64,000 nt of DNA, taken from NCBI GenBank assembly GCA_963817915.1, contig CAWFQL010000006.1, positions 64,001-128,000 on the forward strand. Reading direction: 5' to 3'. Source of the DNA: an uncultured candidate division Zixibacteria bacterium (lineage in GTDB: Bacteria; Zixibacteria; MSB-5A5; UBA10806). How positions within the stretch are numbered: the first letter of the stretch is position 1; each line of letters starts with the position of its first letter. Position numbers and translations under genes: made by a program. The notes beneath the pieces are model-generated. The model had not been told where the DNA came from and made no database searches. It saw only the letters and a list, made by a program, of their open reading frames with translations. Shown here piece after piece: positions 16,373 to 51,120 of this stretch.

Positions 16373-16419
16373 AAATGCTCATTGAACCAGTTTATGAGAG
16401 TGATAAGGATGAATCCCGA
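16373..16419 (-). promoter_or_regulatory. Upstream element shared with the portal-terminase locus
   Basis: TCGGGATTCATC-N20-GTTCAATGAGCATTT; the last 15 bp are identical at 51074-51088. Confidence 0.75.
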
Positions 16420-16421
16420 CC

Positions 16422-16545
16422 ATGCAATATGCGCATGAAATTGCATAAATAATTGACAAATAGTCAGGCAGCCGATGTCCATCATATTAAATATCAATGA
16501 GTTATGTGACTGTAAAAAAGAACTTACATCGGCACGGATATTGCA
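16422..16545 (+). promoter_or_regulatory. Sigma54-type promoter with IHF site and candidate enhancer
   Basis: CGGCACGGATATTGCA (16530-16545) fits the -24/-12 consensus; TATCAATGAGTTA (16492-16504) fits IHF WATCAANNNNTTR; inverted repeat ATGCAAT-N11-ATTGCAT (16422-16446). Confidence 0.7.
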
Positions 16546-16555
16546 TTTTCTATGG

Positions 16556-16710
16556 TTTGCATGGGTGTTTAGATTTTAGATAGATTTCTCCGCTTAGTGC
16601 CCTCCCCGCCAAGCGAGAAACGCGCCAGTCCTAAGAGGAACGGTCCCCAATACGTTCCAATTGAAGGCCGGTCTTTCACTCCCTCCTTGAGATCGGTCTT
16701 CTTTTTTTTT
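16556..16710 (+). ncRNA. Candidate sigma54-dependent small RNA
   Basis: Lies between the sigma54-type promoter and a 12-bp stem (16663-16701) plus T9; no credible ORF; loop contains CCCTCCTT. Confidence 0.5.
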
Positions 16711-16757
16711 CGCATATATTTTTTCGATACCGCATCGTCGACATTCTCCATAAAGCC

Positions 16758-16992
16758 TGTCATTCCGGCCCCCGAGCCCGTCAAGGGCCGGGCCGTTGAC
16801 GGCCGGAATCCATCTTCTCTTGTGAGTGGCAGAAGCTCAAATTTATTCCGTTATCTGCCAAAGATTATCTAATTGCCCGATTTCCTTTTGGGATTATCTT
16901 ACGCGTCAAGCCTTGCCCGCCAAACAAACGGCGGATATACCCTGACCACAAAAAAAGCGGGATGCGGTCACGGCAAGCCGCGACTCGCAGGA
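16758..16992. repeat. REP-like palindromes (GTCATTCCGGC...GCCGGAATCC; GCGGTCACG...GACTCGCAGGA)
   Basis: Inverted repeats; the second type recurs at 51182-51210. Confidence 0.65.
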
Positions 16993-17148
16993 TTGGGACA
17001 GAGAATAATGATTGCGAAAATCTACATCTTAGTATATAATTATATTATATTAAGTATTATTGAAGGAGCCTGAGATGGCGGAAATCCGAATAGCTGGAAT
17101 TAGAATATTGCGTCATTCGCGATTCGCCTGAGATTAGCGAGGGAAGAA

Positions 17149-19272
17149 ATGAAGAAATTTTATTTCAATTTGATTGTGCTTGTAATCTTGGCCAATGCTG
17201 TATTGACGCCTTTGCCAGCTTCCGCCCAGAATGTTGAATATATCGGCTCAACTCTGTGGGCCGGAGTCAATGATGTTAAGGCAGTTGGCAATTACGCTTA
17301 TTGCGCTTTTGCGAATGGCTTAATGGTGCTTGACATCTCAAATCCAGATTCTCCTTCATACTTGAGTCAATGTTATCTTCACGGAGAAGGTGAGGGAATC
17401 GATATCTCCGGAAATTATGCTTACGTGGCGGATGGGTATTCCGGCCTTCAAATAATAGACATAACCGAACTGGCTAATCCAGTATTTGTAGGGCGCTACG
17501 ATACGCCGGGCTCCGCTATGGGAGTCTTCGTCAGGAATGATTACGCTTATGTGGCAGATAGTTCTTCAGGCCTTCAAATAGTAAACATATCCGATCCGGC
17601 TAATCCGGTTTTGGCAGGAAGTTATGATACGCCTCATTGCGCTTTTGGAGTAGATGTCTCGGGCAACTATGCTTATGTAGCGGATGGGAGTACCGGCCTC
17701 CAAGTGATAAACATTGCTGACCCGGCCAACCCCTTATTGGCAGGAAATTGTCATACGTACGACTGGGTTTACGCGGTTTTTGTCCAAGGGGATTACGCTT
17801 ATGTCGCTGAATCGGAAGCTGGAATTCGAGTGATTAGCATAGCCGATCCGACCAACCCATTTGTCGTCGGGAGTTATGATACGTGGGGCTATGTAAATGA
17901 CATTTTTGTTCTTGGCAATTACGCCTATTTGGCGGCCAGATCAACTGGCCTTGAAGTGCTCAACATCTCCGATCCCGCCAATCCATTGCTGGTCGGGAGC
18001 TATGTTACGCAAGGCTATGCCAACGAAGTTTATGTCCAGAACAATAGCGCTTATGTTGTTGATGAATATTATGGCCTTCAAGTGATAAATATATCCGACC
18101 CGGCAATTCCTGAGTTGGCTGGCAGTTATGTCACGGCAGGCCGTTCCAATGGGGTTTTTGCTTTGGGGGAATATGCCTACGTTGCAAAAGGCGATGCAGG
18201 TCTGCAGGTGATAAATATTTCCAATCCTGTCAATCCAGTGTTAACCGGAAGTTTTGTTACTCCAAGTAATGCTCTGGCGGTTTTTGTCCAGGGCAATTAT
18301 GCTTATGTTGCTGATTATATCTCTGGACTTCAGGTAATAAACGTGGCCGACCCAGCTAATCCGATACGGGTTGGAATCTTTGACCCGTCTGGCGGTTGTC
18401 TTGATGCTTTTGTGCAAGGCAATTATGCATATCTCGCGGATGAATCTTCCGGTCTTCAGATCGTCAACATTACCGATCCGAACCATCCCGCATTAGTTGG
18501 TAGTTTTGACATGCCTGGCATGGCCGAGGCAGTCTTTGTCTCTGACATTTATGCATATGTAGTTGCCAGTTATAGTGGTTTGGAAATTCTCAACATCTCT
18601 AATCCGGCCAATCCGTTATTAATAGGGACATTTGCTACCCCTCGTGACGCCGTTGATGTTTTTGTGGCCGGTAATAATGCTTACCTAGCCGAGGAATTCG
18701 GCGGAATACAAATTGTAAATATTTCTAATCCGGCTAATCCCATATTGGCCGGAAGCATTAGTCCGCCGGGCTATGCCTATGGAGTAGTTGTCGATGGCAA
18801 TTACGCTTATGTAGCGGATTGGACTACTGGTATCCAAGTGATCAATATATCCAACCCGGCCCATCCAGTGCTGGCCGGAGGTTATGATACGCCCGGCTAT
18901 ACTGGAGAGGTTTTTATCATGGGCGATTATATTTATGCAGCGGATTTGACCTCGTTAATGATTCTTGTAAATAGCACGACCGGAATTGATGATGCCGAGG
19001 AAATACCAAATAGATTTTCTCTTTCTCAGAATTACCCCAACCCCTTTAACGCCCAAACTGTGATTCAATATTCATTGCCAACCCAATCGGAAGTCTCAAT
19101 CGACATCTTCGATATACTTGGACGCATTGTTAAGAATATTGCCGAAGGGATGAAACCAGCGGGTGATCATCAAGCGATATGGGATGCTGGAGATCAGGCA
19201 TCTGGGATATATTTCTATAGAATTAAGGCCGGGGATAAGGTCGAGACGAGAAAAATGACGCTGCTAAAGTAG
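17149..19272 (+). CDS. LVIVD-repeat secreted protein with T9SS/FlgD-type C-terminal sorting domain
   Basis: About 13 repeats of GNYAYVAD...GLQIINISDP.NP.L.G.Y.T; C-terminal QNYPNPFN...SGIYFY...KMTLLK. Confidence 0.92.
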   Translation: MKKFYFNLIVLVILANAVLTPLPASAQNVEYIGSTLWAGVNDVKAVGNYAYCAFANGLMVLDISNPDSPSYLSQCYLHGEGEGIDISGNYAYVADGYSGLQIIDITELANPVFVGRYDTPGSAMGVFVRNDYAYVADSSSGLQIVNISDPANPVLAGSYDTPHCAFGVDVSGNYAYVADGSTGLQVINIADPANPLLAGNCHTYDWVYAVFVQGDYAYVAESEAGIRVISIADPTNPFVVGSYDTWGYVNDIFVLGNYAYLAARSTGLEVLNISDPANPLLVGSYVTQGYANEVYVQNNSAYVVDEYYGLQVINISDPAIPELAGSYVTAGRSNGVFALGEYAYVAKGDAGLQVINISNPVNPVLTGSFVTPSNALAVFVQGNYAYVADYISGLQVINVADPANPIRVGIFDPSGGCLDAFVQGNYAYLADESSGLQIVNITDPNHPALVGSFDMPGMAEAVFVSDIYAYVVASYSGLEILNISNPANPLLIGTFATPRDAVDVFVAGNNAYLAEEFGGIQIVNISNPANPILAGSISPPGYAYGVVVDGNYAYVADWTTGIQVINISNPAHPVLAGGYDTPGYTGEVFIMGDYIYAADLTSLMILVNSTTGIDDAEEIPNRFSLSQNYPNPFNAQTVIQYSLPTQSEVSIDIFDILGRIVKNIAEGMKPAGDHQAIWDAGDQASGIYFYRIKAGDKVETRKMTLLK

Positions 19273-19283
19273 GGAGAGAGAAA

Positions 19284-20918
19284 TTGAGAACTATTATATT
19301 ATTGGCTGCGTTCACGTTGGTCTCTACGGTACAAACATTGAGATCGCAAGAACAAATTTCCCTCCTGCCTAATGGCGGTCATTATATAGCAAATAAAATC
19401 ATAGTCACCAATAAATATGGCACGGCTAACTATGCTATCGGAAAGAATATATCGGGTTTCGCAACGACGGGGATAGCATCGATCGATAAATTATGCAGTG
19501 AAATTGGAGTAATCGCTATCGAACCTTTCTATCCAGGCCGCCTTACCAAGCCTAACCTTAAACGGGAACTTGCCAGGATTTATATTTTCACGTTGAAGGA
19601 TGGCATTGATGCTCAAAATATCTTGGGTAGATTTGGTGACGATCCTAATATCGAATTCGCGGATTTGTATGCTGTTCCGGAAGTCTGCTATATTCCCAAT
19701 GACCCGCGTTTCGCCGAGCAGTGGTTTTTGTCGCGCATCCAAGCAGATGATTGCTGGGATATAGTCAGGGGCGACGCCACGCGTTCTGCTGTAATTGGAA
19801 TCGATGATACGGGAGTATATTGGGACCATCCCGATCTTTTCGCCAATATCTGGGTCAACGCGGCTGAAGATGTCAACCATAACGGAATATTTGACCCAGG
19901 CGACAATGATAATATTGACGCTGACAGCAATGGTTATATCGATGACGTAATCGGCTGGGATTTTGGAAACCACGATAATAATCCAAGAGAGGACACCCCC
20001 ATTCATGGCACTATGATTGCCGGATGCGCGTCCGAAGTGACAGATAATGATATCGGCGGCGCCGGGATCGGCTTTTCCGCAAGGTTGATGTGCGTGAAAG
20101 GATCAAATTCGCAGGGTGATCTCGTAGCTGTTTACCTGGGCATTATATATGCGGCTGAGAATGGCGTTAATGTTATAAATTGTTCCTGGGGTTCACCCAA
20201 TTATGTCGGTGCTTACCAGGCGATTATTAACGCCGCATATCAGGATGGAGTTTTTATCGTGGCCGCGGGAGGCGGCACCTCCAATTTAATCTACCCTGCT
20301 GCCTATGACCATGTATTGGCTGTTACCGCTTCTGATCAATATGACCATCTCCTTCCAGGGTTTGGATTCGGATACTGGGTTGATGTTGCCGCGCCGGGCG
20401 AAGCCATTCTCTCGACCTGGGGGCAATCAGGTTATCAATTCACTTCAGGATCGTCATCTTCATCCGCCATTACTTCCGGATTAGCCGGGCTGATCAAGGC
20501 TTGGCATCCTTCGTATAATCCCGATCAGCTGGATACGTTGATTAGGATTTCGGCAGATTCTATCGGTAATCAAAACCCGAACTACCCGAATGCGATTCGT
20601 ATCAACGCCTTCAATTGGCTCAACTTCACAAAAATTGAAGATGCCAAGATTCCCGAAAATTTTTCATTTTCCCAGAACTACCCTAATCCTTTCAACGCCC
20701 AGACCATGATTCAATACTCGCTGTCGGAGCAGGCTGATGTTTCAATCGATATCTTTGATATACTTGGACGTAATGTTGTGAATATTGCCGAAGGATTAAT
20801 GCCGGCAGGAAAGCATCTAGCGGTTTGGGATGCAAGTGAGCAGGCATCGGGAATATATTTCTACAGAATCAAGGCCGGGGATAAGATTGAGACAAAGAAG
20901 ATGGTTTTGATGAAATGA
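19284..20918 (+). CDS. Subtilisin-like S8 peptidase with C-terminal sorting domain (atypical active-site motifs)
   Basis: DDTG, HGT, INCSWG, VDVAAPG; usual GTSMA reads GSSSS and AAGN reads AGGG; QNYPNPFN tail. Confidence 0.88.
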   Translation: MRTIILLAAFTLVSTVQTLRSQEQISLLPNGGHYIANKIIVTNKYGTANYAIGKNISGFATTGIASIDKLCSEIGVIAIEPFYPGRLTKPNLKRELARIYIFTLKDGIDAQNILGRFGDDPNIEFADLYAVPEVCYIPNDPRFAEQWFLSRIQADDCWDIVRGDATRSAVIGIDDTGVYWDHPDLFANIWVNAAEDVNHNGIFDPGDNDNIDADSNGYIDDVIGWDFGNHDNNPREDTPIHGTMIAGCASEVTDNDIGGAGIGFSARLMCVKGSNSQGDLVAVYLGIIYAAENGVNVINCSWGSPNYVGAYQAIINAAYQDGVFIVAAGGGTSNLIYPAAYDHVLAVTASDQYDHLLPGFGFGYWVDVAAPGEAILSTWGQSGYQFTSGSSSSSAITSGLAGLIKAWHPSYNPDQLDTLIRISADSIGNQNPNYPNAIRINAFNWLNFTKIEDAKIPENFSFSQNYPNPFNAQTMIQYSLSEQADVSIDIFDILGRNVVNIAEGLMPAGKHLAVWDASEQASGIYFYRIKAGDKIETKKMVLMK

Positions 20919-21073
20919 TCGTTTTTCCCGAAATAGAATAATCGATCCTGCATTTTAAGGACAAGATAGATTCCGCATCAAGTGCGGAATGACAGAATGT
21001 AAAGATATGCAGCGGTCAAAGGGTACCCCGCCTCAGGAGGACGAGACATTACTCGCTGGAAACAAGCCAGCCC

Positions 21074-21793
21074 TTATTTCCCCAGTACATAAATCACCCA
21101 CGGCGCAATCTTAGTTTCATTCACCCACTGAAATGGTTCAGCATCATTGGCCAACGGCTTGAACATCTCGAGCAATTTTAGGCCGGATTTTTGATAGACC
21201 TCGCGGTAAGCATCATCGAACCAAACTATATCCTCCACGGGCCTGCGATCATCGACATCGGTCATAATGATTTTCACGATGTCACCAGATTTGGCATTTC
21301 TATTTTCAGGAAAGTCTTCTGTAGTAAATGACGCCCACTCATTAACATAAATATCAGGCGAAGAAACCAAATTGACGATTATGCCGTCTTTATCCAAAAG
21401 CTTCTTGATACCGGAAAATAATTCGATTTTCTTTCCCGACGTCGGGATATTATCAAAAGTAAAAGCACTCAATACCATGCCATAATGATTACCATCGAGG
21501 AAGCTGACACTATTCGCGGACATCAAACGGTAGTCTCCATACGGATCAATTTCCTCCGCTTTGGATATCATTTCCGGAGAGATATCAATGCCAATGACCT
21601 GAAACCCCAAATTTCGCAGAAATCGGGTTGAGCGGCCAGCTCCGCAGCCAAAATCGATCGCCGTTTTGCCCTTAACATAATTGGAGATAATTTCGGGCAG
21701 ATCACGATAAGCCAGATAATATGTGCCGGGGAATTCCAGCTTGGAATAGGCATCGGCGCGCCTGGAATCCTCGTAAATATTTTCGAATTGCAT
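21074..21793 (-). CDS. Class I SAM-dependent methyltransferase
   Basis: AIDFGCGAG, GIDISPEM motifs. Confidence 0.88.
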   Translation of the reverse strand: MQFENIYEDSRRADAYSKLEFPGTYYLAYRDLPEIISNYVKGKTAIDFGCGAGRSTRFLRNLGFQVIGIDISPEMISKAEEIDPYGDYRLMSANSVSFLDGNHYGMVLSAFTFDNIPTSGKKIELFSGIKKLLDKDGIIVNLVSSPDIYVNEWASFTTEDFPENRNAKSGDIVKIIMTDVDDRRPVEDIVWFDDAYREVYQKSGLKLLEMFKPLANDAEPFQWVNETKIAPWVIYVLGK

Positions 21794-21937
21794 AAGATTA
21801 TTATAACTTAATGAATTATAATCGTCAATAGCTCCAGTTAACTTCTCCGATTTATGTTGACAACAAATCGAAACATGGATAAATTATGCTTGTTAAATAT
21901 GTAAATGCCTCTGTTACTTGAAAAAGGAAGATAAATT

Positions 21938-23539
21938 ATGAAAAGCGCTATCGCAGTAATAGTTGCATTTTTTGTCTTAACTTGCGCTTCAATGGGAACT
22001 GAATTACAAGGCGATTTAACTGGCACGCTACTGCGGGCCAACAGTCCCTATCAGGTTATTGGTAATATCAATGTGCCTCGATACGCAGCATTGATTATCG
22101 AGCCCGGAGTTGTATTTGATTTTCAAGGTTATTATGAGTTCGTTATCAATCAGGAGGCCACCCTCACTGCCATTGGCAATGAAACTGATTCCATAATCTT
22201 TACGTGCGATACATTGGTAAATATAAACAGATGGCGCGGAATTCGATTTGATCGATCATACTATACATCGGTTCTCCAATATGGCCGTGTTGAATACTCC
22301 AAGGATACTGGCATTGAATGCTACTACACACATCATAAAATCGCAAATTGCACAATCCGATATAATGCCGGCATTGGCGGTGAATTCGATGGCGGCGGGA
22401 TACGATGTGACTATTTTGCTACTCCCATTATCATCGATAATATAATTACAATGAATACCGCGTATAATGGAGGGGGAATTTGTCTGAATACTTACAGTGC
22501 ACCCATCATAAATAATAATATTATCAGCAATAATACTGCCGAAGCCGGCGGTGGAATTTTCGCGACTGGCGGCGAAAATAGCGAAATCATAAACAATCAA
22601 TTCGATCATAATTCAGCCAGAAACGGAGGTGGAATTTATCTATCATTTCAAGGAATATTTTTAGTCGAAAGCAATGTATTTTTAGGTAATCACGCGGACA
22701 GCGGGGGCGGCGGGTTGTATTCAAAAAGATGCGTTAAAATTACGGTAGATAACAATCTCCTTACTGATAATCACGCCGATTCTTCAGGCGGGGCCGCATA
22801 TTTTGATTTTTGCGATTCAGTTCGATTTTTCAATAATTTGGTGGTCGAAAATTCCGCCTATTTAAATGGGGCTATTGGAATCGGTCCGCCATGCCCGGTA
22901 AAGATGTTTAATAATACTATTTGCAACAATATCCAGACCGATCAAGAATCAAGCGCGATCTACTGCGATTCATGTAGACTTGTAAATAATATAATCTGGA
23001 ATAACGGGGCGCACGAGATAGGCGGCAATGCAATTGTCAGATACTCCGATATTCAGGGCGGTTATCCTGGCGACGGTAATATAAACACCGATCCGATGTT
23101 CCGCGATACGGTCAACAGTGATTATCATTTGATGTCAACTGCGTGCGGCGATTTGTACGATTCGCCATGCATCGATACAGGCAGCCGAGTGGTTTTGGAC
23201 GACGCACTCAATTGTGATCGAGGATTAGGTACCGAAGCATCTGATATGGGGGCTTATGGAGGTGGTATTTATCCTCGTTCTTATATCGAAGGTGATGTCA
23301 ATGGATCTTATTCGTTTAATGGACTTGATGTCACCTACTTGGTAAATTACTTCAGGGGCGGGGCTCCACCGCTATTTAGTTGTGAATGCGGGTCGAATCC
23401 TCATTTTTACGCAACCGCCGATGTCAATGGCAGCTGTACGGTAAATGGCCTCGATGTCACATATATGGTAGGCTATTTCTTCGATCCTCATAGATTTCCT
23501 CCCAGATCTTGCGACGATTGCCCGGCAACGGAATATTAA
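21938..23539 (+). CDS. Secreted right-handed beta-helix protein with C-terminal dockerin-like domain
   Basis: N.A..GGGI repeats; GNINTDPMF, SPCIDTG, DMGAYGG; duplicated GDVNGS..NGLDVTY.V.YF. Confidence 0.85.
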   Translation: MKSAIAVIVAFFVLTCASMGTELQGDLTGTLLRANSPYQVIGNINVPRYAALIIEPGVVFDFQGYYEFVINQEATLTAIGNETDSIIFTCDTLVNINRWRGIRFDRSYYTSVLQYGRVEYSKDTGIECYYTHHKIANCTIRYNAGIGGEFDGGGIRCDYFATPIIIDNIITMNTAYNGGGICLNTYSAPIINNNIISNNTAEAGGGIFATGGENSEIINNQFDHNSARNGGGIYLSFQGIFLVESNVFLGNHADSGGGGLYSKRCVKITVDNNLLTDNHADSSGGAAYFDFCDSVRFFNNLVVENSAYLNGAIGIGPPCPVKMFNNTICNNIQTDQESSAIYCDSCRLVNNIIWNNGAHEIGGNAIVRYSDIQGGYPGDGNINTDPMFRDTVNSDYHLMSTACGDLYDSPCIDTGSRVVLDDALNCDRGLGTEASDMGAYGGGIYPRSYIEGDVNGSYSFNGLDVTYLVNYFRGGAPPLFSCECGSNPHFYATADVNGSCTVNGLDVTYMVGYFFDPHRFPPRSCDDCPATEY

Positions 23540-23600
23540 AATTCAAAGGCCAGTTCGGCAGGAGTCTTCGACTCCTTCCCTACACATGCAAGTAATAAAT

Positions 23601-23633
23601 AAAAAGGGGCGTCAGTGCATGATGACGCCCCCT
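23601..23633. terminator. Intrinsic terminator between convergent genes
   Basis: AAAAAGGGGCGTCA-loop-TGACGCCCC. Confidence 0.7.
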
Positions 23634-23648
23634 TAGAACGATGGATCG

Positions 23649-26255
23649 TCAGAGGGGATTTGACGAAGCATCATCAAGATCAAATGAAAGCCTATAGGCG
23701 CCGCGGCCATTGGATAGAATAGTCAGCCCGGAATCAATTTCATCAATCTGACACCTGAGCTTACTGATATATTTTGTCTGATTGAATCCCGGTTCGAGAA
23801 TTTCTTTGTCGACCCAAGGCTTTTTGTCGATAAATCCGCTCCAGAGCCTCTGCAAAAATTGATATAATTTCGGTTGAAGATAGATCGATTTGCCATTTAT
23901 TAGAACTTCGGAGAGCATTTTCTTTGTTGATCCGGTGAAGACAAGTGATGGCTTGATCGCCTTGACGCATTCTGATTCAAAATGATTTTCAGATGATTTA
24001 GGTTTTGCAGTTTCTTTGAATCCGCCGTTTTTGATATCTTTTTCGCGCCATTTCCTGATAATTTCCTGAACAGGCGTCGGAACGATACTGTTCAATGCCA
24101 CAAATTCGATATTGCGCAGATCGTTTTCGTCGCGTATTCCAAAGTCGTATAGCCGTCGAATAAATTCCCTATCGATTTTCAAAGCCTTCGCCAATGGCAG
24201 CCGAGATTCGTCAACACCTAATCGCAATCGTTCAGCAAATTTCCCCAGTTCTGACGATAAATCATCGCTGAAGCGATTTAAATCGGAAAACGATCTGCCG
24301 AGTTTATCGATAGCGCTTACCAGCCAGGCCAGATTCAGGGCATCTCGTTTGAGCCGCCCCGCGCCCTTGCGGAAAAATATCTCTATATCACGTGTTGGCA
24401 TACCTGAAATCCATTCGGTAATAAAAAGCAATACGCCAAGCCGCCCATTCTCACTTGGATTGTCGAAATTATGGAGTGACGTCCTGAGTATTTTGGAATC
24501 ATCAATTGTCTTTGCGCCCCAGAATTCATTCAAACGCGAGGCCAGATACTCCCCTGATGACTCATCCAGATAATAACCGCCGGAAGATTCCGCCCATTCG
24601 ATAAGGTCTGTAGAAAAGAAGAGCCACTCGAGCGCGGAATTTATCCCACACCCGGCGATAGCCTCTTTGATTTTGATAGCTGATATAACTGACAATGACG
24701 ATGAACTGGCTGCCTTGCCGAAATTCGTAAGCTCGATCTTCCCCCAGCTTTGGAACAACGAAAGCCCGCCTTTTTCAAGGATCGATACGGCTTCTTCAAT
24801 ATTATTGGAAAGATCTTCGCCGATATTTCCGCAGTAAGAGGCATAAAGCGTTCTGCAGATATTCGCGATATTTTCAGGCTTTTGAGCCGCCCCGCATGAT
24901 ACCAAATGTAATATAAAATCAGTTAATTGATCATTACTGAATCCCGAGCAAGGATCGTCGGTCTTCCCATATATATATTTATCCCAGAGAATCTCATGTT
25001 CATAAGGTGATTCGGCGGTCATTATCGCGCGACCGTACTTCTCCCCCGTTCCCAATCGTCCGGCCCGTCCAGCGGCCTGGTGATAATCGATACTTGTTAA
25101 TGGTACCAGATGCTCGCGGCAATTGGATGACTTCTCGCCGGAGTATTTCATGGCATCGATAAAAACATTTTTGGCCGGAAGATTCACTCCCCAGGCCAAT
25201 GTTGAAGTTGAAGCCAGCATCTTAATGTCACCATTTCGAAACCCCTGCTCGACCAACTGCCTTTGATGCTGATCGAGATCGGCGTTATGGAACGCGACCC
25301 CGTGGGTGAGGCAGCGCTCCAATTTATCATTCTGTATAGATGGCGGAATGTCGGAAATCATTTTAAGAGATTCGGACGCGGCAGGGAGATTCATGTTTAC
25401 GGCCAAATAATAGGCCATATTTTCCGATGATTTGCGCGAATTCGTGAAAATTAGTATTTGTTCGTTCTGGTCCGAAAGATGTTTGATAGCGCAAAGGCTC
25501 TGGGCATTGAATGGACCCTCGGATTCGGTATCGATTTGAGCCAGCCAATGCTCATCACCCTCGCAAAGATCATTGAATCCTCTGAAATGAAATGTCCCTC
25601 GATGAAGAACTCCTAATCTGAGATCGACTGGTCGTCTGTTCTCTTCTATTAATGGCAGATTCAACCATTTGGATATTCTTTCCGGCGATGATCCGCTGCC
25701 AATCAATATGATAATTTGCGCCTGGGGGTTGAATATCCTGATTTTTAGAATTGCCAGTTCCAATTCGATCCCCCGTTTTGGATCTGATATCAACTGGAAT
25801 TCATCAAATATGAATACCGAGGTATTCCTGATAAGCGAAATATCACATGACGTTAATGCGTTGAATTTTTCATATATGAGAATACCAAGATCGAAATCGC
25901 CCTTACCTATCTTAGAGTCATCATCGGTATGATCTCTCGTAGAAAGTCGAATTTTAACGCCCAGCGGCGCATATCTTGGTCGGAAAAGCCGGTATTTTTC
26001 CTCGGCGATTGCCTTTAAAGGTAGTAAGAAGATCGCTTTTTGCCGTTTAACAGCCCTCGACATCGCGGCCATTTCGCCGCAGAATGTTTTGCCCGATGTC
26101 CCCGGCCCGCTGATGACAAGGCTCTTGCCGTCAATAAGCCCAAATCGCATAACGGCTTCAGCTTGTATCGGCAAGAGAGAGCTGATACCGTCATCGAACC
26201 ATCGCCTGACAAGTTGGCCAGTCAGGCCGTGTCTTTCCAGTGTTTCTATTTTCAT
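23649..26255 (-). CDS. Ski2/Hel308-like SF2 helicase with C-terminal winged-helix domain
   Basis: GPGTSGKT, LPLKAIAEEK, DEFQ, HGVAFHNADL, STSTLAWGVNLPA, QAAGRAGR; C-terminal YISKLR...GRGAYRL wHTH-like. Confidence 0.88.
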   Translation of the reverse strand: MKIETLERHGLTGQLVRRWFDDGISSLLPIQAEAVMRFGLIDGKSLVISGPGTSGKTFCGEMAAMSRAVKRQKAIFLLPLKAIAEEKYRLFRPRYAPLGVKIRLSTRDHTDDDSKIGKGDFDLGILIYEKFNALTSCDISLIRNTSVFIFDEFQLISDPKRGIELELAILKIRIFNPQAQIIILIGSGSSPERISKWLNLPLIEENRRPVDLRLGVLHRGTFHFRGFNDLCEGDEHWLAQIDTESEGPFNAQSLCAIKHLSDQNEQILIFTNSRKSSENMAYYLAVNMNLPAASESLKMISDIPPSIQNDKLERCLTHGVAFHNADLDQHQRQLVEQGFRNGDIKMLASTSTLAWGVNLPAKNVFIDAMKYSGEKSSNCREHLVPLTSIDYHQAAGRAGRLGTGEKYGRAIMTAESPYEHEILWDKYIYGKTDDPCSGFSNDQLTDFILHLVSCGAAQKPENIANICRTLYASYCGNIGEDLSNNIEEAVSILEKGGLSLFQSWGKIELTNFGKAASSSSLSVISAIKIKEAIAGCGINSALEWLFFSTDLIEWAESSGGYYLDESSGEYLASRLNEFWGAKTIDDSKILRTSLHNFDNPSENGRLGVLLFITEWISGMPTRDIEIFFRKGAGRLKRDALNLAWLVSAIDKLGRSFSDLNRFSDDLSSELGKFAERLRLGVDESRLPLAKALKIDREFIRRLYDFGIRDENDLRNIEFVALNSIVPTPVQEIIRKWREKDIKNGGFKETAKPKSSENHFESECVKAIKPSLVFTGSTKKMLSEVLINGKSIYLQPKLYQFLQRLWSGFIDKKPWVDKEILEPGFNQTKYISKLRCQIDEIDSGLTILSNGRGAYRLSFDLDDASSNPL

Positions 26256-34840: not shown

Positions 34841-34842
34841 CC

Positions 34843-42560: not shown

Positions 42561-42600
42561 TTCCAGATGAGGTTTACCTAAATATAAAAGGAGAACATCG

Positions 42601-42798: not shown

Positions 42799-42889
42799 TA
42801 TTCATGTTCTTCATCTCCCCAATCGACGGCATCGACGGCATTAAACGAAAACTATCAAAACGCCGATAAAATATTTAGGGTTAATAATC

Positions 42890-43396: not shown

Positions 43397-43514
43397 AATC
43401 TGAGATAAACATTAATATATTTCGATTTGGCGGTTTGCCAGGAACCCTCCGATATTCTCTTTCGTTTAATATATTGATTATGAATGTCATTAACGAAATA
43501 CCGAGGAGGATATC

Positions 43515-43916
43515 ATGAAAAAGTTAGTGGCCACGATGATGGGGATTGTGCTGCTCTTGGCGGCTGCCAATGTTTATGCCTGTAATGGCGGATCGGCATG
43601 CGTAAAGAAGACTGATGTTAAGAAAAGCGCGTCGATAAACAAGTCTAACAAGGTATTCGCCGGTGTTGATATCTATTCCAAGAATAGAATCGATAACTCA
43701 GCGCCTAGCATATCTCCAGGACAGAAATCCAAATCATTCAATAAGAATTCCAATTCAGCCAAACCTATTCCGGGACCGGTAAAGCCGATATTCAAAGGCA
43801 TTGTCCCGTCGTTATTGCCATATTTCTTGGCTCAGAACGAAGCGGAAATTCAGGCCGAGTTCGCCAGCGTCAACGCTTGGAATTGGAAAGCACCCCAGGA
43901 ATTCGTACAAGAATAA
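43515..43916 (+). CDS. Hypothetical secreted protein
   Basis: RBS GAGGAGG, signal peptide, terminator at 43943-43975. Confidence 0.65.
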   Translation: MKKLVATMMGIVLLLAAANVYACNGGSACVKKTDVKKSASINKSNKVFAGVDIYSKNRIDNSAPSISPGQKSKSFNKNSNSAKPIPGPVKPIFKGIVPSLLPYFLAQNEAEIQAEFASVNAWNWKAPQEFVQE

Positions 43917-44018
43917 GCGCACCACCTCATATATTTGCCCAGGGCCGGATTCAATTATTGAATCCGGCTTTCTTTATTATAAATTGCGTAACACCTCCTA
44001 TTATGCTATGCTGAAATT

Positions 44019-44950
44019 GTGGAGAAAAAATACAAATATGATTTAGCGCTGGTGCTGGGCGCTGGCGGCGCGCGCGGACTGGCCCATATCGGAGTCCTCA
44101 AGGTCTTAAAACGAGAAGGCGTCAAGGTCGATCTAATTGTTGGAGCATCTATTGGCGCTGTAATCGGCGGCATGTACGCCCAATGTCTCGACCCCGATAT
44201 TGTCGAGAAAAAGATGCTATCATATATTGAAGGCTTCGGAATCAAAACCAAATGGCTGAATTTTCTGGACGATTCCGATCCCAGAGAACGGCATTTCATG
44301 TTCAGGGATTTAAGCGACTATGTGAAACTTCAGCTTGCAGGTCTCAAAGCCTTGACAACCGCATCACTGGAGGAGGAAGAAGTGCTGTCGGTGCCGCTTA
44401 CTCATTTTCTCGACGATGACATCATTGAAAATTGCAAAATGCCGTTTGCGGCTATCGCGTTGGATTTGGAAAATGGACAAACAGTTGCCCTTACCGAGGG
44501 CTCAATTCTGGACGCTGTATATGCGTCATCGGCGGTGCAGGGTGTCTTCCCTCCGCTGGTCCGTGATGGTTCGATGCTGATCGATGGCGGCGCGGTTGCG
44601 GTCGTACCGGTAGAGGAAGCGAAGAATTTAGGCGCAAGGCAGGTTATTGCAGTCGACGTCTTCCTTGATATTGGCCGAGAAACCAAATTCAATAATAGCC
44701 TTCAGGTCATGATCAGAACCGATATCCTTTGCCAGGACAGGCTCCGCAAGATGGAATTGAAGAATGGCTGAATGTGTTATTACGCCCAATGTCAAAACCA
44801 TCCATTGGGCCAATTTCACCCGCGCCGGGATTGTATTAAACGAGGCGAAATCGCTGCCGAGTTTGCGGTGGCGAACATGAAGAAGTATTCCACATCCGAT
44901 CCTTGGTGGCTCGATCTCTCCTCAGCCCGCTTAAATGAAATAGAAGATTA
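44019..44950 (+). CDS. Patatin-like phospholipase (frameshifts near 44765 and 44830; 3' end approximate)
   Basis: LGAGGARG, GASIG, DGG; plausible continuation (ECVITPNV..IHWANF) in other frames. Confidence 0.8.
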
Positions 44951-45245
44951 ACCAAATGTACTATAGGCTGGAGTGTTTAAAGTGCTGTAGGGTCGCCTGA
45001 CCCGACAGCTTAATTCGAATTCAAATAACCCTTTACCACGTCGTCAGGAATCCCTTCCTGACAATATCAGGTGCGTTGTTCAATTGCGTGTCAAAGCTTG
45101 CTTTGACCGCAATTGCTTCTCAGCGTCGTTAAGCAACTCTTCCTGCCGACAGCATGCGATCCAAAGTCAGCCCCTCAAAATCAAAAAGCCCCGCGCGATT
45201 CGGGGCTTTTTATTTTCTTGAAATCAACGGCAAACTCAGAAGAGG

Positions 45246-45431
45246 CTAATATTCATCTTCCTCGTAATTTTCGTCTTCAAAATCCTCTTCCAATTCATCC
45301 ATCTCATCTTCAGAATCGAGTCCGAAACGCTCTTCAGAATCAGCGTCGGCGCACTCTTTACTGCAGTACATCTCACCATCGCGACGATACGCCTTGCCGC
45401 TGAAATCTATGCCGCAGTAAGCGCATTCCAT
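45246..45431 (-). CDS. Small zinc-finger (CxxC...YCSxxC) protein with acidic tail
   Basis: RBS AGGAGG; CAYCG..YCSKEC; D/E-rich C-terminus; terminator at 45184-45215. Confidence 0.7.
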   Translation of the reverse strand: MECAYCGIDFSGKAYRRDGEMYCSKECADADSEERFGLDSEDEMDELEEDFEDENYEEDEY

Positions 45432-45970
45432 AACAATTCCTCCTGAAACTTCAATTTATTTAATAAATTAGACTTTTCTTCATTTTGCTGCCAGCTAAAC
45501 CATATGCCCTGATATTCTTCGTCATAATGAGCGCAAAGTTTATCTAATTTTATGATACTTTTCGGAAATTTTCCGGCTACCTCCTGATCCTCGCCACCTT
45601 TCAACATGGCATGACAGTTTTTTGTTCCAGTATATTTTTAATCCGCAAAAAATCACTCATAGATATCCAAGTTCGTATCATTCAAATGGTTCCGTAAACA
45701 AATTAGCCCTCAGACCGTTATTTACCCCTCTAAAATCCGCAATTAGGGTCTGAGGCTCCAATTGTCAATATATTTTTTAATAAATCTGGCAATTTTGATT
45801 CCGTCGGAATAATGCCCGGATTGGCAAGGCGGGGCGCGCCAAATCATAGGGAGAAAAATATAAGCCGATTTTTCAGATTTATATTGACATTGATATTCAT
45901 TATCGCAATGATAATCAGGAAAATGTCGTGCCCGTTTGCGGCACAGAGGTAAACAAAAAAAGGAGTGGAT

Positions 45971-46357
45971 ATGAACAGGATAGTACATTGGGAACTGCAG
46001 ACGACAGATCCCCAGAAAGCCAAAAATTTCTATGAGCCGTTATTTGGCTGGAAACTCGATTACATGAAGGACATGAATTATGTCGTTGTAAAAACAGAAG
46101 ACCGGCCCGACGGCGTTGGCCCTGACGGTGTCATGGGCGTGGGCGGCGGCATGACTATTGTCAAACAAGTACAGCCATCAGGAACTATCCTTTATGTAGG
46201 AGTCGATGAGATCGATACTACCCTCAAGAAGGCCGAGAAATTGGGCGCCAAGGTAGTGACTCCAAAAAGCCCTATACCCACAGTTGGCTTTTTCGGAATG
46301 CTACTCGATCCGGAAGGCAATAAGATCGGCCTTTTTACCCCGGAAAAGAAGTCGTAA
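45971..46357 (+). CDS. VOC/glyoxalase-family protein
   Basis: VHWEL..TDPQKAKNFY..LFGW, DPEGNKIGL. Confidence 0.9.
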   Translation: MNRIVHWELQTTDPQKAKNFYEPLFGWKLDYMKDMNYVVVKTEDRPDGVGPDGVMGVGGGMTIVKQVQPSGTILYVGVDEIDTTLKKAEKLGAKVVTPKSPIPTVGFFGMLLDPEGNKIGLFTPEKKS

Positions 46358-46502
46358 TGTCATTTTCAAATCCGCGATTAGGGGGCGATAATAGATCGCC
46401 CCTTTTTATTTAATAACTAAAACGGGATAAAAACCCAAAAGGAATGCACCGATCCCTCACTTTACCCTTGCTTCAATTCAATGCCCATACTAAAATCGTC
46501 CC

Positions 46503-47718
46503 ATGAATTTTAGATCGACATGGGAATGGTTTCCCAGGCTTTTCAATACTCGCTGGTATTTCTCCCTGATTATTATCTTCGTCATGCTTCAGATTTTTCT
46601 ATTTGGCGAATTTCATAATCATCGATTCCTGCAAAATGACTTCAAGGTATACTACCGTGCAGCCGAGCGAATAGTTCAGGGCGAAAACCTGTATCGAGGC
46701 GATATCGATGGGTTTTACAAATACAAATACTCGCCGACAGCGTCTATATACTTTATACCATTTGCGGCCTTCCCGGTCGAGGTGGCCAAGATCCTATACT
46801 GGCTGTTTCTATCGACCGTCATCTGTTTCGGCTTCTATCTGGGCATAAAGATAATACTTCCGGATTTTCTCAGTCTGCCGCCATCGAAAGTTAATAGCAT
46901 TATTTTAATTTCCGCCCTGATTCTTGGCGTCTGCATCGAACGAGAAATCCATTTGGGGCAGGTCAACCACATCCTGCTGGTGCTTTATATGTCAGTATTC
47001 TATCTCCATAGCAAAGGCAAAATTAATGACGTCGTCGTTGATACTGGCGGCCACGATATTTTTCAAACCTTTCGGATTTATTTTCATCCCCTACTATTTG
47101 GTACGACGCCAATTCAAGATGGTCGGATTTTTCACGCTATTTCTAATCGTGCTGGCAATAGCTCCCGCGATATTCTTCGGATTCAGCAATCTGCAGGGGC
47201 AGTATCAGAATTGGTTCTTTGAAATCTCGGCCGAGCTCGCCAAAAAACAGACTCTGCTTGAGAATGCCAATCATTCAATATTTTCAATTCTGGCCAGGTA
47301 TACACCGCTAAGACTGATCGATTTCACCCCGGAGCTGACCAAAATATATCAGTTGATAGTAACCTCGCTCATCGGGATATTTTTTCTTTTTCTCTATTTC
47401 AAGGGGAAGGATATCGAGAGAAGATTCGTCCTGGAATCAGCGTTTATCATGGGGCTGATTCCGGCGCTGTCATATACCAGCTACAACGCCTACGGCTTCA
47501 TGGAATTGGCGGTTCTTCTAATTGTGATTAATTATAGGCAACTGCCGAAGTGGACTCGCATCGTGGCGATTGTCGGTTTTGTTTTTTCCGCTATTAATAT
47601 GTTCGATCTCGTGGGACGGAAAAATTGGGTGATTCTGAATGATATCTCGCTGATCGCAGTCGGAGCTTTAATTCTGATGATAGTCTTATCGATAATTCGT
47701 TTTCGCAAAATTGCATAA
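46503..47718 (+). CDS. GT87/DUF2029-like membrane glycosyltransferase (frameshift near 47020)
   Basis: DFKVYY.AA, YKYSP, GQVN in ORF 46503-47222; FKP and NHSI continue in ORF 46924-47718. Confidence 0.8.
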
Positions 47719-47728
47719 TTAGATTTTA

Positions 47729-49072
47729 TTAGAATCTCCCCACCGATGGCCGTATTATCGGGGCTTCGGATCCTCGCTGCCTTACCTGCCATAGAGCTAA
47801 TGCCAACGCGCAGACTCCATCGCCGACATTGGTATAGGATTTATCCATAGCGCGGATTTCATCGGTCAGGCTCCAGCTACCGCCATTGTCATCTGGGCAC
47901 TCAATGTGATTCCAGACAACTTCGCCCGCGAATATCGCCCGTTCGAAATTGGCCAAAAGCAGATCTCGATTGCCGCCTCCAAAATTAAAACCGATCGCCC
48001 CGATATCATCCAATTCCGAGAGAACAACATCGCCCAGGCCGGTGGAATCTATGATGGTCACGCCGCCATACTTATTATGAATATCCTTGATCATCTTAAT
48101 TGTAGTCGGCCATTCCCGCTGCATACGGATTATATTCATCACTTGGAACGGCTTGCTTGTGGCGTCAATAGTGATGCCAACCGTGTGCGTTACTTTTCGT
48201 GCTAAATCCCAGCCGTGGATAAAGAAATTATCCGAGCCGATGATAATTTTATCGTTCTGATTTTTCTCAATCAGACATCTTTCAATCACTTCTTCTGGGA
48301 ATAATCTCCCCTCGAATGACGCGAACCGCCCATAGAGATGCTGCTGAGCCCGTGCCTGCGATATATTTCCCTTCAGTTGGTCGAGATATTGGCGCGAAAG
48401 ATATGGATTTTCGAATGTTGCCCCTTGATGGAGATACCCTCGTCGCTCCTTTTCGATTGCCTGGCACCGTTTGAAAAACCAATTGAGGCCGTTCGGGGTC
48501 GATGAAAAATCAAGCGTCCCTCCCCTGTCGGCCAGACGCATTTTGATAACACCATCCACCACCCACTCGCCAAACGGCTCATACGCCGCCTCATCGAAAT
48601 TGATATAATCGAAATCATGGCCCAGCAGATATTCCCCTCGGTTATTGGTAGAGCGAGCCCATAACTCCGAGCCATTCTTGAATTCTATATGGGGAAATGG
48701 CGTTTGTTTGATAGAATGCACGAGCGCCATAAGATGATTCGACCTGCCAAGTAGATCTATGACCTTAAGAAATATTATCGATGACTGATCCTGCGTGATG
48801 GAAACATTGGCACAACGATAATACCCCGGCTTGTCGAATTTGGTAGGGCGGATTTGAAAGATTGCCCTGTGAATCAGCTTGACCGCCTGAATTTGTGATT
48901 TCCCCCAACGGTTGCCGGTCACAAGCGCATTTTCGACACCTGTAGAATTATTCAGCCATTTCGCCTGGCCCTCATGAGGATTTATTTTCAGAAATGATTT
49001 TGCAAAATAAACAATATCATTCACCGCCCGCCGCCAACTGCGGCAGGTAATTTCATCAGGTTTATCTATCAT
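47729..49072 (-). CDS. Phage terminase large subunit
   Basis: PHEGQ, Walker A GNRWGKS, Walker B INFDEAA, motif III SSTPNG, ENPYL; nuclease acidic residues in GWDLAR, IDSTGLGD, DGVCALALA. Confidence 0.92.
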   Translation of the reverse strand: MIDKPDEITCRSWRRAVNDIVYFAKSFLKINPHEGQAKWLNNSTGVENALVTGNRWGKSQIQAVKLIHRAIFQIRPTKFDKPGYYRCANVSITQDQSSIIFLKVIDLLGRSNHLMALVHSIKQTPFPHIEFKNGSELWARSTNNRGEYLLGHDFDYINFDEAAYEPFGEWVVDGVIKMRLADRGGTLDFSSTPNGLNWFFKRCQAIEKERRGYLHQGATFENPYLSRQYLDQLKGNISQARAQQHLYGRFASFEGRLFPEEVIERCLIEKNQNDKIIIGSDNFFIHGWDLARKVTHTVGITIDATSKPFQVMNIIRMQREWPTTIKMIKDIHNKYGGVTIIDSTGLGDVVLSELDDIGAIGFNFGGGNRDLLLANFERAIFAGEVVWNHIECPDDNGGSWSLTDEIRAMDKSYTNVGDGVCALALALWQVRQRGSEAPIIRPSVGRF

Positions 49073-49110
49073 TTTAAATCAAACACCAAAATGAGTGACT
49101 TTTGGCATTG

Positions 49111-49719
49111 TTATTGGCTATTGGCCACCGGTTTTGATATTGAATTTGTCATATTCTCGCGCGCCAATTCCTCTTTTCTGATTTCCGAAAGAATTTCCAA
49201 AAGCAGCTTTTCATTTTGCGAGCCCTCGGAAATTTTCTGTTTGATCTCAATCGCTTTGAATGCCGAATCGATCTTGAGTTCGATTTCGCCATCAACCAGT
49301 TTTTTATAAACCATATCGCGAACAGTATCGAGTAATAGCTGATCGCTGATAACGAGCGGCTGGATAATTTTTTTATTAGCGTTAATAGCGTCGTCAGGAA
49401 CCCTTTCCTGACGATTAACCTGCATCTTTGCATCTTCAGGAATCCTTTCCTGACGACCAACTAGTGTCTTCTTCGCATCGCTGCTACCAATGCCGCCGGT
49501 GCTTTTGGGTTCGACAGGCCTAATAGTCTTTTCAGCTTTAGTCTTGCAGTCCTCTTGCTTAATATGATTTGCCCTATGCTTCGCCAATGAGAACCGACTG
49601 ATCGGCACTCCATTGCTCTTGGCCCATTGAATAACACCATCGACTTTGCCAGGCATGTCCCTTTTTTCTATTTCATTTCTCAATGACGAGGCGCATATGG
49701 CGCATGTTTCGATCGGCAT
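49111..49719 (-). CDS. Putative terminase small subunit (CxxC...HxxxH zinc finger/HTH plus oligomerisation helices)
   Basis: Between portal and TerL; CAICAS...SLAKHRANH; C-terminal helical pair. Confidence 0.65.
   Translation of the reverse strand: MPIETCAICASSLRNEIEKRDMPGKVDGVIQWAKSNGVPISRFSLAKHRANHIKQEDCKTKAEKTIRPVEPKSTGGIGSSDAKKTLVGRQERIPEDAKMQVNRQERVPDDAINANKKIIQPLVISDQLLLDTVRDMVYKKLVDGEIELKIDSAFKAIEIKQKISEGSQNEKLLLEILSEIRKEELARENMTNSISKPVANSQ
49390..49457. repeat. Two REP-like palindromes embedded in-frame in the TerS linker
   Basis: TCAGGAA(C/T)CCTTTCCTGACGA twice, 45 bp apart; intergenic relatives at 45039-45063, about 5309-5335 and about 58728. Confidence 0.7.
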
Positions 49720-49720
49720 A

Positions 49721-51010
49721 TCAGCTTTCCTCCTCGGCTACGAAAATCCGTTCGCGGGCTTCTTCTTTGGTCAGCAGGCCTGCCTTGAAAAGCTCCATGA
49801 CTCGTTCAGCGGCTTCGTGTTCACTGCGATATTTCTCGAATATATTATCGATCCCGTTATTGTCGAAACGGACTTCAGCCCTGATGTCGTGTCCCTCATG
49901 CTTGAGATAGTTATTGATGAGCCATTCGAAAAATCTGATGGCCAGTTTTTGAACCGAGACTATTTGTCTTAATACCAGTTCATATTTGAACCCCGCCCAG
50001 GTTTGAGTAGTGCCAAATGAGTACCCGAGCATGAATGGATCGAGATGAACTCCGGCGCAGATATCCTCTACCAGAGCCCGATGAGATAGATACCACGCGC
50101 TCGTGGCAGGAGTCGCGCCGCTGCCGGGGCCAATAGTCTTGATTTCGATATCATCCCAGGTCACCGCGGAATCCGAGGGCTTGATGCCGGAAAAGAGTTT
50201 GACCGTATCGTCGAAATAGTCATTGGCCCTATCTATATAATTTGGCTCCGATTCGCCCATCCTGCGTTCCGGCTTCTTGATAAGCACATGCATGCGATTA
50301 TATCCGGCCTTCTCCTGCGATTTCTGCATATCATCGAGTAGCTTCTGCTCCAAGCGGCTTACAAAACCAATTGATTGCAATATGCTCTTGCCGCGCGGAT
50401 CCGAAACATCGTCATCAAGCGGGATATAAATAAAACTCGATTGGTCGGCGAGAATCTTCTCATTATAGGAATCTATATAGATTTTCAATTCATCTTCATT
50501 TTCGAAGACCAACTTACGCAAATCGACTGCCGAGAATCCGTTGATACCGCCCGATTCCGAAAGATCTATATTCCCCGCGAAGGCGCCATCCACAAAGAGG
50601 CTATTGAAGAAAAGATCGGATAATCTTTGCAGGCCCCCGGTTTTATAATATTGATTCGGCGCCAATTTATTATTGAGCTCGTCAATTGCATCACGCAATT
50701 TCGCCTTGTTTCTCTCGGTGATATTTTCCGCCAGATGAATTTCCATCGGGCTTGAGCACAGCCTGACCCATACCCATATCGCGCCGTTGATGACAGGAAT
50801 ATTCTCACGCAAAAAGCGATACAAAGTCACCCGCTCATTGTAGCTATAATCATCAGGGAAACTTATCATCGCTTGTTTGTTAGCCAGACCGGCGCCGGGC
50901 CTGGTGCGGGCATGATGGTGCGGTTTATTGGCAGGCGCGCGTTGCGACAAAGCCGTCGATGGAATTTGCTTAGATTTACCTGTTTTTTTGAAAAATGGTA
51001 TCTTGATCAT
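49721..51010 (-). CDS. Phage portal protein
   Basis: LYRFLRENIPVINGAI..WVRL, DPRGKSIL, IEIKTIG, ICAGVHLDPFMLG.S.GTT; heads the operon with TerS and TerL. Confidence 0.82.
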   Translation of the reverse strand: MIKIPFFKKTGKSKQIPSTALSQRAPANKPHHHARTRPGAGLANKQAMISFPDDYSYNERVTLYRFLRENIPVINGAIWVWVRLCSSPMEIHLAENITERNKAKLRDAIDELNNKLAPNQYYKTGGLQRLSDLFFNSLFVDGAFAGNIDLSESGGINGFSAVDLRKLVFENEDELKIYIDSYNEKILADQSSFIYIPLDDDVSDPRGKSILQSIGFVSRLEQKLLDDMQKSQEKAGYNRMHVLIKKPERRMGESEPNYIDRANDYFDDTVKLFSGIKPSDSAVTWDDIEIKTIGPGSGATPATSAWYLSHRALVEDICAGVHLDPFMLGYSFGTTQTWAGFKYELVLRQIVSVQKLAIRFFEWLINNYLKHEGHDIRAEVRFDNNGIDNIFEKYRSEHEAAERVMELFKAGLLTKEEARERIFVAEEES

Positions 51011-51073
51011 CGCCTCTCCTTTGGCAAGAAAACGTTTCGACTAGTCATTCCACCTTTAGGCTATTTTAATAAT

Positions 51074-51120
51074 AAATGCTCATTGAACTCTTTTTGAGAT
51101 TTATCCCGCATAAAATCCGA
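51074..51120 (-). promoter_or_regulatory. Upstream element shared with the capsid operon
   Basis: TCGGATTTTATG-N20-GTTCAATGAGCATTT, collinear with 16373-16419. Confidence 0.75.

Follow-up and report, generated by a model that had tools for sequence, protein, structure and literature searches.

A 64,000-nt stretch of the genome of an uncultured Zixibacteria bacterium (the window, C6:64001-128000) carries two distant operons of phage-like genes on its minus strand, a head operon that includes the gene for the major capsid protein (MCP) and a second operon for the portal protein, a protein termed p202 and the large terminase subunit (TerL). We report that both operons are headed by copies of one block of about 50 nt, which is probably a dedicated promoter for an alternative sigma factor or some sigma-like activator. 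The block occurs at nine places in the whole genome (3,334,887 bases in 22 contigs, 93.9% complete, coded G000), where it is followed by the head operon, the portal operon, a lone gene for an SLT lytic transglycosylase and six copies of a structured RNA, and it is conserved ahead of the orthologous operons in related genomes. Coordinates of all features are collected in Table 1.

Nine copies of the block in the genome

The original prediction concerned a 15-mer, GTTCAATGAGCATTT, found on the minus strand at 16373-16387 and 51074-51088, about 39 nt and about 64 nt ahead of the first start codons of the two operons, which were on this ground taken to form one regulon. The 15-mer is indeed present at both operon heads and these are its sole two exact copies in the assembly; the measured distances are 38 nt (to the ATG of the first head gene at 16334) and 63 nt (to the ATG of the portal gene at 51010). 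They are also the only matches in the window with up to two mismatches (shuffled sequences gave a mean of 0.19 such matches, and 1 of 100 shuffles reached two), and the whole assembly matches at 5 places with at most one mismatch and at 18 with at most two. The upstream TCGG extension of 32 nt that had been proposed, TCGGnnTTnATnC, can be read in the letters of both copies (13 of 32 positions identical), but it recurs neither at the other seven genomic sites nor in the orthologous upstream regions and was therefore dropped as chance.

The true extension lies downstream, toward the genes, where 16 of the 25 positions that follow the 15-mer are identical between the two copies, ending in AGGTGGA, and where conservation holds at all nine sites. 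The complete block of about 50 nt can be described as AAAAC-n2-GTyCA-n4-nGCATTTGnTTT-n8-CCnAtAaGTGGAAGG. Alignment of the nine sites reveals an A-run ending in C, GTTCAAysAGCATTT, GTTTTGAAAA, CCC, a TATAAG/GATAGG-like hexamer and GTGGAAGG. The 15-mer covers precisely the bipartite core GTyCA-n4-nGCATTT, which is the most conserved stretch of the block: in an alignment of 22 sites taken from seven genomes, no variation occurs at the G of GTyCA, at the CATT of GCATTT or at one T of the T-run behind it, and seven more core positions are at least 90% conserved, as are three outside the core (A6, C39 and A51). An ATG at 16382 falls inside the motif (GTTCA-ATG-AGC) in frame with the head gene and lengthens the called open reading frame (ORF) by 16 codons; orthologs of the first head gene have no ATG at this position, and their proteins begin at the MEKLTE start. 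In copy B the motif ATG opens a five-codon mini-ORF, and the other seven sites carry ATC or ACC there.

The nine-site set was first obtained with the 15-mer at up to two mismatches together with a short two-part pattern, independently of the position weight matrix (PWM) that was built from the nine sites. In the PWM scan of the genome these sites score 52-69 and everything else scores at most 17.6. R1, a sequence-only covariance model trained on the nine own sites and 13 orthologous sites, again returned exactly nine places at E <= 0.01. A common genome-wide repeat, which had been named as a finding that would speak against the regulon, was looked for and is not what these scans reveal; the score gap and the canonical promoters of tRNA genes (see below) rule out both such a repeat and a generic promoter.

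The original prediction also expected that a genome scan would lead to lysis genes, and this was borne out. One of the nine blocks precedes a lone gene for a 195-aa protein with an SLT domain (PF01464, 41.6 bits against a cut-off of 21.3; the PHROG endolysin match is weak), and in two relatives the block precedes a lone Peptidase_M15_4 gene. The distance from the block to the SLT start is about 20-35 nt, and the 3' end of the block provides the ribosome-binding site. A simple hydropathy scan of the SLT protein revealed no signal peptide or membrane segment, and no holin-like membrane protein was seen beside the SLT or M15 genes. That the block precedes another lysin family in these relatives is difficult to account for other than by function. 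At this one regulatory position a non-orthologous replacement is observed, with the SLT transglycosylase in our genome and Peptidase_M15_4 in genus g5.

Conservation of the block in related genomes

The family f1 comprises 14 genomes (our own and 13 relatives) from six genera. R1 detected the block in all 14 of them, with 1-9 copies per genome and 45 matches in the relatives; the latter were sorted by BLAST and family matches, the RNA-like and unclear classes by eye. The portal gene is preceded by the block in 10 of the 13 relatives (nine found by BLAST and one by eye), and orthologs of the first head gene are preceded by it in 9 of the 13. The block was also found ahead of the portal gene in 7/7 related portal loci, with a second one ahead of the first head gene wherever the region was fetched. 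Conservation upstream of orthologs, which had been proposed as a check of the prediction, thus holds. Among the remaining matches in relatives, besides the two ahead of Peptidase_M15_4, 17 precede hairpin-rich sequence without a convincing ORF and seven stayed unsorted, including one that lies 158 nt ahead of the gene for a methylmalonyl-CoA mutase, one in front of a 175-aa protein that has no recognised family and one that is N-masked.

In the genome G008 all nine block sites read AAAACGCGTTCAAAGTGCATTTTGA; genome-specific variants that are common to all targets in a genome are what one co-evolving reader would give. The claim that the two loci form one regulon is supported comparatively, by conservation and by the nature of the targets, and it has to be corrected in scope, as a structured RNA lies behind six of the nine copies and the set is wider than the particle genes. 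Beyond f1, inspection by eye revealed GGAGCGACA and a similar 3' part at both operon heads of G074, and that two f2 genomes possess TGCA-n5-GCATT-like cores.

What kind of promoter could the block be?

In this genome the regions upstream of tRNA genes carry TTGACA-n17-TATAAT (e.g. at C3:45020, C6:142581, C9:60207 and C9:162412). Housekeeping promoters are thus canonical, and the block, which has neither hexamer at that spacing, appears to be a promoter of a different type. At the RNA copy at C17:206754 (L004) the block begins just where a terminator-like hairpin with its T-run ends, and a consensus scan found no sigma-70-like site within 500 nt, so that the block must bring its own promoter. 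The same scan found no sigma-70-like site on the minus strand near block B, and a sigma-A promoter (TTGACA, 16-18 nt, TATAAT) was accordingly rejected for the L004 block and for block B.

Two further promoter classes were tried and rejected. The sigma-54 consensus has GG and GC 10 nt apart (TGGCAC-n5-TTGC), and by inspection no conserved GG lies 10 nt upstream of the invariant GC of the block. The sigma-28 (FliA) consensus is TAAA-n15-GCCGATAA, and its -10 element, GCCGATAA, is similar to the downstream half of the block (CCCGATAG, CCCTATAA); moreover, the distance from CAGCAT to this -10-like half is 14 nt, as in the genome's own flagellin promoter, TAAAGT-n14-GTCGAAAA, and the genome encodes a FliA/WhiG sigma factor (TIGR02479, 269 bits). 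However, the -35 half of the block is (c)AGCATTT in 9/9 sites, not TAAAG, and GTyCA has no counterpart in the sigma-28 consensus. The flagellar genes lack the block, and a scan for TAAA-n14-16-GCCGATAA with at most one mismatch (92 matches) misses all nine sites.

We infer that the block acts as a promoter and not as a transcribed leader. A 5' leader serving as an RNA operator for translation or stability, or as a processing site, appears quite unlikely: the 3' end of the block (GGAAGG) does lie in the first helix of the RNA and overlaps the ribosome-binding site of the SLT gene, and the register of a promoter is ambiguous, but the conserved 5' half shows no conserved pairing, the TTCAA/TTGAA inverted repeat is lost in relatives, and one RNA copy has a terminator directly adjoining its block, with no sigma-70-like promoter found upstream there or at the portal copy. 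The distance between the block and the start codons, which varies from about 20 to 63 nt, also fits a promoter better than a translational operator.

Several observations weigh against the interpretation of the block as the dedicated promoter of one small regulon. A weak sigma-70-like site (9/12 matches, i.e. at chance level) is located about 95 nt upstream of block A. The -35/-10 register is ambiguous, since TATAAG/GATAGG taken as the -10 element places the transcription start after GGAAGG, and GGAAGG pairs inside the RNA (one sequence shows 2 compensatory changes there), which places the start further upstream. Both the PWM and R1 were trained partly on the nine sites, so that degenerate sites could escape them and the sharp score gap is partly built in, an argument that is to this extent circular. 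With an assembly of 93.9% completeness in 22 contigs, nine is a minimum count and further sites may exist. The RNA-like and unclear classes among the 45 matches in relatives depend on sorting by eye. The cores in G006 are far more varied than those in G008, and concerted evolution is hence not general. No sigma factor or activator could be assigned to the block, and co-regulation of the targets is a prediction from sequence.

Structured RNAs behind the block

Six copies of the block (in loci L001, L002 and L004-L007) are followed by nearly identical sequences, each about 125 nt long and folding as four hairpins, with 38 predicted pairs, of which 4 show a compensatory change. These RNA copies are free-standing: the next ORF of at least 90 aa is convergent in 4 of the 6 cases, and the tRNA genes that lie behind a fifth copy carry a TTGACA/TATTTT promoter of their own. 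A search of Rfam 15 with seven own loci at E <= 0.1 returned two tRNAs only and left the RNAs unmatched, and a search with ten loci of relatives at E <= 1 returned no match. The RNA segment GCGCCACATT has two alternative pairing partners, the near-repeats AATGTGACG upstream and AATGTGGCGC downstream, and this three-part arrangement for alternative pairing is also kept in the relative G001.

BLAST searches with one RNA copy against 40 relatives retrieved the promoter part only, in 3 genomes, and did not find the RNA body. The RNAs of other genera were reached only via the block, and their bodies differ greatly among genera. Genus g5 has a multi-branched RNA of about 240 nt behind the block, with six copies in G008 (L079, L090, L111, L112, L114 and L115) and one in G012 (L122). 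Across these seven sequences 16 of the 64 predicted pairs keep pairing through two-sided changes, which is good evidence of a real structured RNA. The 3' part of the g5 RNA contains the conserved motif GGACAGGTCCCAyCTTGTAAAGGG. In genus g3 (G006; L102, L105 and L109) some block-driven RNAs of about 75 nt stop just ahead of CTTTGACAA, a -35-like element of an ordinary promoter; these short RNAs may be arranged in tandem with the ordinary promoter downstream.

The abundance of RNA genes among the targets (6 of the 9 block copies) raises the question whether the block derives from a repeated, possibly mobile small-RNA cassette, copies of which landed ahead of the operons and were homogenised by gene conversion, so that the link to the particle would be incidental. 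The exact identity of the two operon copies in our genome is lineage-specific (in other genomes, e.g. at L054, the portal and head copies differ), which suggests recent homogenisation. We regard this origin as very unlikely, as the block is found at the same two positions before orthologs in six genera in which the RNA bodies diverge greatly, and it is found ahead of two unrelated kinds of lysin gene. Neither a transposase nor terminal repeats were noticed beside the RNA copies, although no systematic search for them was made.

A candidate reader of the block

The genome encodes 13 sigma-70-family proteins (PF04542 scan etc.), namely RpoD, a 284-aa group-2-like protein, FliA and about ten extracytoplasmic function (ECF) factors, and none of the 13 genes is preceded by the block. 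Family scans revealed no sigma factor of the late-promoter type inside the two operons. The original prediction pointed to the 165-aa protein encoded at 54580-55077, and we consider it a tentative and rather unlikely candidate for the reader. A profile of 12 members of its family matches region 4 of the ECF factor SigL (3hug, E 2.9e-7). The AlphaFold2 (AF2) model of the protein has a pLDDT of 79.3, and the folds that match it best are those of sigma-4 domains, although the E-values (at least 0.02) are weak. In the C-terminal half CxxCxH and HxxH are invariant in the alignment. A full sigma-70 protein with regions 2 and 4 was rejected, as the protein has region 4 only and does not appear in the PF04542 scan. 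A search for homologous proteins with the candidate returned only itself; in Atlas it falls into a Zixibacteria-only cluster, whose next neighbours are phage sigma-4 proteins, at lead level only (0.85).

A gene for a ribbon-helix-helix (RHH)-like protein of 70-77 aa lies directly 3' of the sigma-4 gene in 12/12 family genomes examined. The sigma-4/zinc protein is present in 12 of the 14 family genomes and in 148/151 genomes of the phylum. Five genomes possess it without an MCP match, two show the reverse and one has neither (n=151); with the MCP in 145/151 genomes both proteins are near-universal, so that presence and absence cannot discriminate. Here 3.5 kb separate the candidate gene from block B, and in G008 it stands between the two divergent operons, but in G003, G006 and G013 the distance is 67 kb to about 1 Mb. 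In total, it is close to the system in two and far from it in three of the five genomes with both on one contig.

SigO-RsoA of Bacillus subtilis is a two-subunit sigma factor. The candidate pair resembles it in consisting of two small co-transcribed proteins, one of them with sigma region 4, but the partner here looks like an RHH protein rather than sigma region 2, and the sigma-4 protein here carries a Cys/His zinc-type motif. One may speculate that the reader of a phylum-wide regulon for a particle like a gene transfer agent (GTA) is a split or "appropriating" sigma factor of phage origin that is specific to the lineage, in which the sigma-4/zinc and RHH pair would give -35 recognition to a host sigma core, and that the RNAs would be working parts of the particle cycle; we hold this to be unlikely. 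If it were true, the RNAs would be packaging or assembly cofactors, cargo or a switch limiting lysis to a subpopulation, and not bystanders.

The two operons and the putative particle

Table 1. Features of the window and of other loci associated with the block.
Feature	Position	Strand	Remarks
Promoter-like block, copy A	16345..16397	-	heads head operon; core 16373-16387; R1 39.9 bits
Promoter-like block, copy B	51046..51098	-	heads portal-p202-terminase operon; core 51074-51088; R1 38.9 bits
First head-operon gene, 272 aa	15516..16334	-	site of protease/scaffold gene; orthologs 49-64% identical
Rest of head operon	7532..15500	-	p101, p81, decoration-like, MCP, p479, p123, p274, p526, p487, p130
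Decoration-like protein	14457-14879	-	phrog_4588 2.1e-7
MCP	13316-14422	-	phrog_3922 5.5e-61
Portal protein	49721..51010	-	phrog_3753 portal 7.1e-25; orthologs 62-68% identical
p202	49111..49719	-	sits where small terminase subunit would
TerL	47729..49072	-	PF03237 Terminase_6N 7.5e-6 (above cut-off); phrog_2 2e-26
Candidate regulator, 165 aa	54580..55077	+	sigma-70 region 4 and C-terminal CxxCxH...HxxH
RHH-like protein, 77 aa	55067..55300	+	overlaps end of 54580-55077 gene; weak RelB/DinJ and Arc/CopG-type matches
SLT lytic transglycosylase gene, 195 aa	block at C16:176687; gene L003:1239-1826	+	PF01464 1.1e-10
Peptidase_M15_4 genes behind block	L116:1666-2178 (G008); L084:1379-1894 (G012)		lone genes; 4.7e-17, 1.8e-17
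RNA copy	C3:134047-134207, block C3:134197	-	four-hairpin RNA
RNA copy	C10:50391-50550, block C10:50397	+	four-hairpin RNA
RNA copy	C17:206754-206873, block C17:206754	+	four-hairpin RNA
RNA copy	C17:502622-502751, block C17:502632	+	four-hairpin RNA
RNA copy	C17:79139-79309, block C17:79299	-	four-hairpin RNA
RNA copy	C12:579697-579856, block C12:579847	-	four-hairpin RNA

The recognised phage parts of the two operons are the MCP, the decoration protein, the portal protein and TerL. The first head gene had been labelled a protease, a label that no family match supports: the protein has no Pfam family at E <= 0.1 and no sequence match in the PDB, and it matches only PHROGs of unknown function (phrog_16951, 8.9e-16). 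The six ORFs that follow the MCP gene revealed no match to a tail family, only weak matches to BNR (p479), Ig-like (p274) and CarboxypepD_reg (p487) families. For p202 there is likewise no Pfam match and no PDB sequence match, and close relatives keep it between the portal gene and TerL. Farther away, in the families of G074, G064 and G120 (L136-L139), the portal gene adjoins TerL without p202, and the first head gene codes for 525-624 aa.

The capsid search yielded 45 loci with 54-79% identity, nearly all labelled Zixibacteria, with some metagenome-assembled genomes labelled Ignavibacteria or Calditrichota. Across 44 related loci the gene order is kept as (TerL)-first head gene-p101-decoration-MCP-p479-p123/p274-p526, and in L054, L056 and L058 portal-p202-TerL is located immediately ahead of the head genes on the same strand. 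In the window the operon parts stand in the same order and on the same strand, with 31 kb of host genes between them, of which the scanned ones code for type IX secretion system (T9SS) cargo, a subtilase, a methyltransferase, a helicase, a patatin-like protein and a glyoxalase. What the original prediction called a split is better described as one 31-kb interruption of an ancestrally contiguous cluster. The contiguous clusters of L054 and L056 also contain two blocks, the second one ahead of the first head gene, so that this second block is an internal promoter that the ancestral cluster already had and did not arise through the split. Elsewhere in the window (232-5198, minus strand) seven consecutive ORFs of 210-253 aa form a tandem array of paralogs, six of which match OMP_b-brl, OmpW or Opacity-type barrels.

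The MCP was found in 145/151 evenly sampled genomes of the phylum, with one match each except in G152 (two fragments) and with 52-79% identity, and the best deposited phage capsid is at most 33% identical to it. The loci are flanked by host genes (citrate synthase, T9SS cargo), and no integrase, replication or repressor/lysogeny families were found among the 31 and 10 ORFs scanned in and beside them. A single-copy, vertically inherited capsid together with the lack of integration, replication and lysogeny genes among the scanned ORFs points to an old domesticated head-and-packaging module, closest to GTAs. That the block is instead the operator of a lysogeny repressor over a housekeeping promoter of an active prophage is extremely unlikely, as the phage structural genes and an RHH-type gene 4 kb away (a fold common in phage repressors) are outweighed by the lack of sigma-A-type hexamers in or beside the block, by scans of ORFs within and next to the operons that returned no integrase, replication or lysogeny genes, and by the vertical inheritance of a capsid that is single-copy in nearly all genomes and far closer to its relatives than to those of phages.

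Phage late promoters are read by a phage-encoded sigma or sigma-like factor, such as gp55 of T4 or gp34 of SPO1. The block resembles them in being long and strongly conserved, in lacking the -35/-10 hexamers of the host and in standing ahead of structural and lysis genes. It differs from them in that the genes here are chromosomal, single-copy and phylum-wide, and any reader would now be a host gene.

The GTA of Rhodobacter capsulatus (RcGTA) is the nearest known case. Its regulon has the activator GafA (PMC9638019, PMC6363796), which, as described in PMC9638019, activates the structural cluster and three further loci, for the head spike, the tail fibre and lysis, two of which contain putative sites. 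According to the same source, GafA combines DnaA-like and sigma-like DNA-binding parts and contacts the omega subunit of RNA polymerase. The Zixibacteria system shares with that picture a presumed domesticated particle, scattered loci that include separate lysis genes and one dedicated promoter-proximal signal. The differences are that the phylum is another one and the motif unrelated, that the block is far sharper, with about 50 nt and nine sites, and that multi-copy structured RNAs stand under the signal here, which are not described for RcGTA in PMC9638019. In addition, tail genes were not recognised in our system, whose particle is a prediction from its genes. Our literature search found no paper linking Zixibacteria with GTAs and no description of a phylum-wide capsid system.

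Proposed mechanism and biological meaning

We propose that the block is a promoter that is not read like housekeeping promoters, and that an alternative sigma factor or sigma-like activator would read it. The portal-terminase operon, the head operon, the lone gene for a peptidoglycan hydrolase and the copies of the structured RNA would then form one small, discrete regulon, the members of which are presumably co-expressed. Activation of a single promoter type would bring about capsids, the packaging machine and a cell-wall lysin together, and such joint switching would follow the logic of a GTA or another domesticated phage-like particle. Particle production and lysis by these genes are what their predicted functions suggest.

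To our knowledge, GTAs are known from few lineages, and the way in which their scattered genes are linked is understood in fewer. The present analysis provides a sequence-defined, putative nine-member regulon for a capsid system that almost all sampled genomes of this uncultured phylum retain. In the proposed regulon one promoter ties together capsid, packaging and lysis genes, and it flags a lysin and RNAs that no annotation would link to the particle. The block could be used to list the parts of the system in any Zixibacteria genome, as a bait for its reader and to follow the timing of the particle in metatranscriptomes. RNAs as functional parts of the particle cycle would, if true, be new for such elements.

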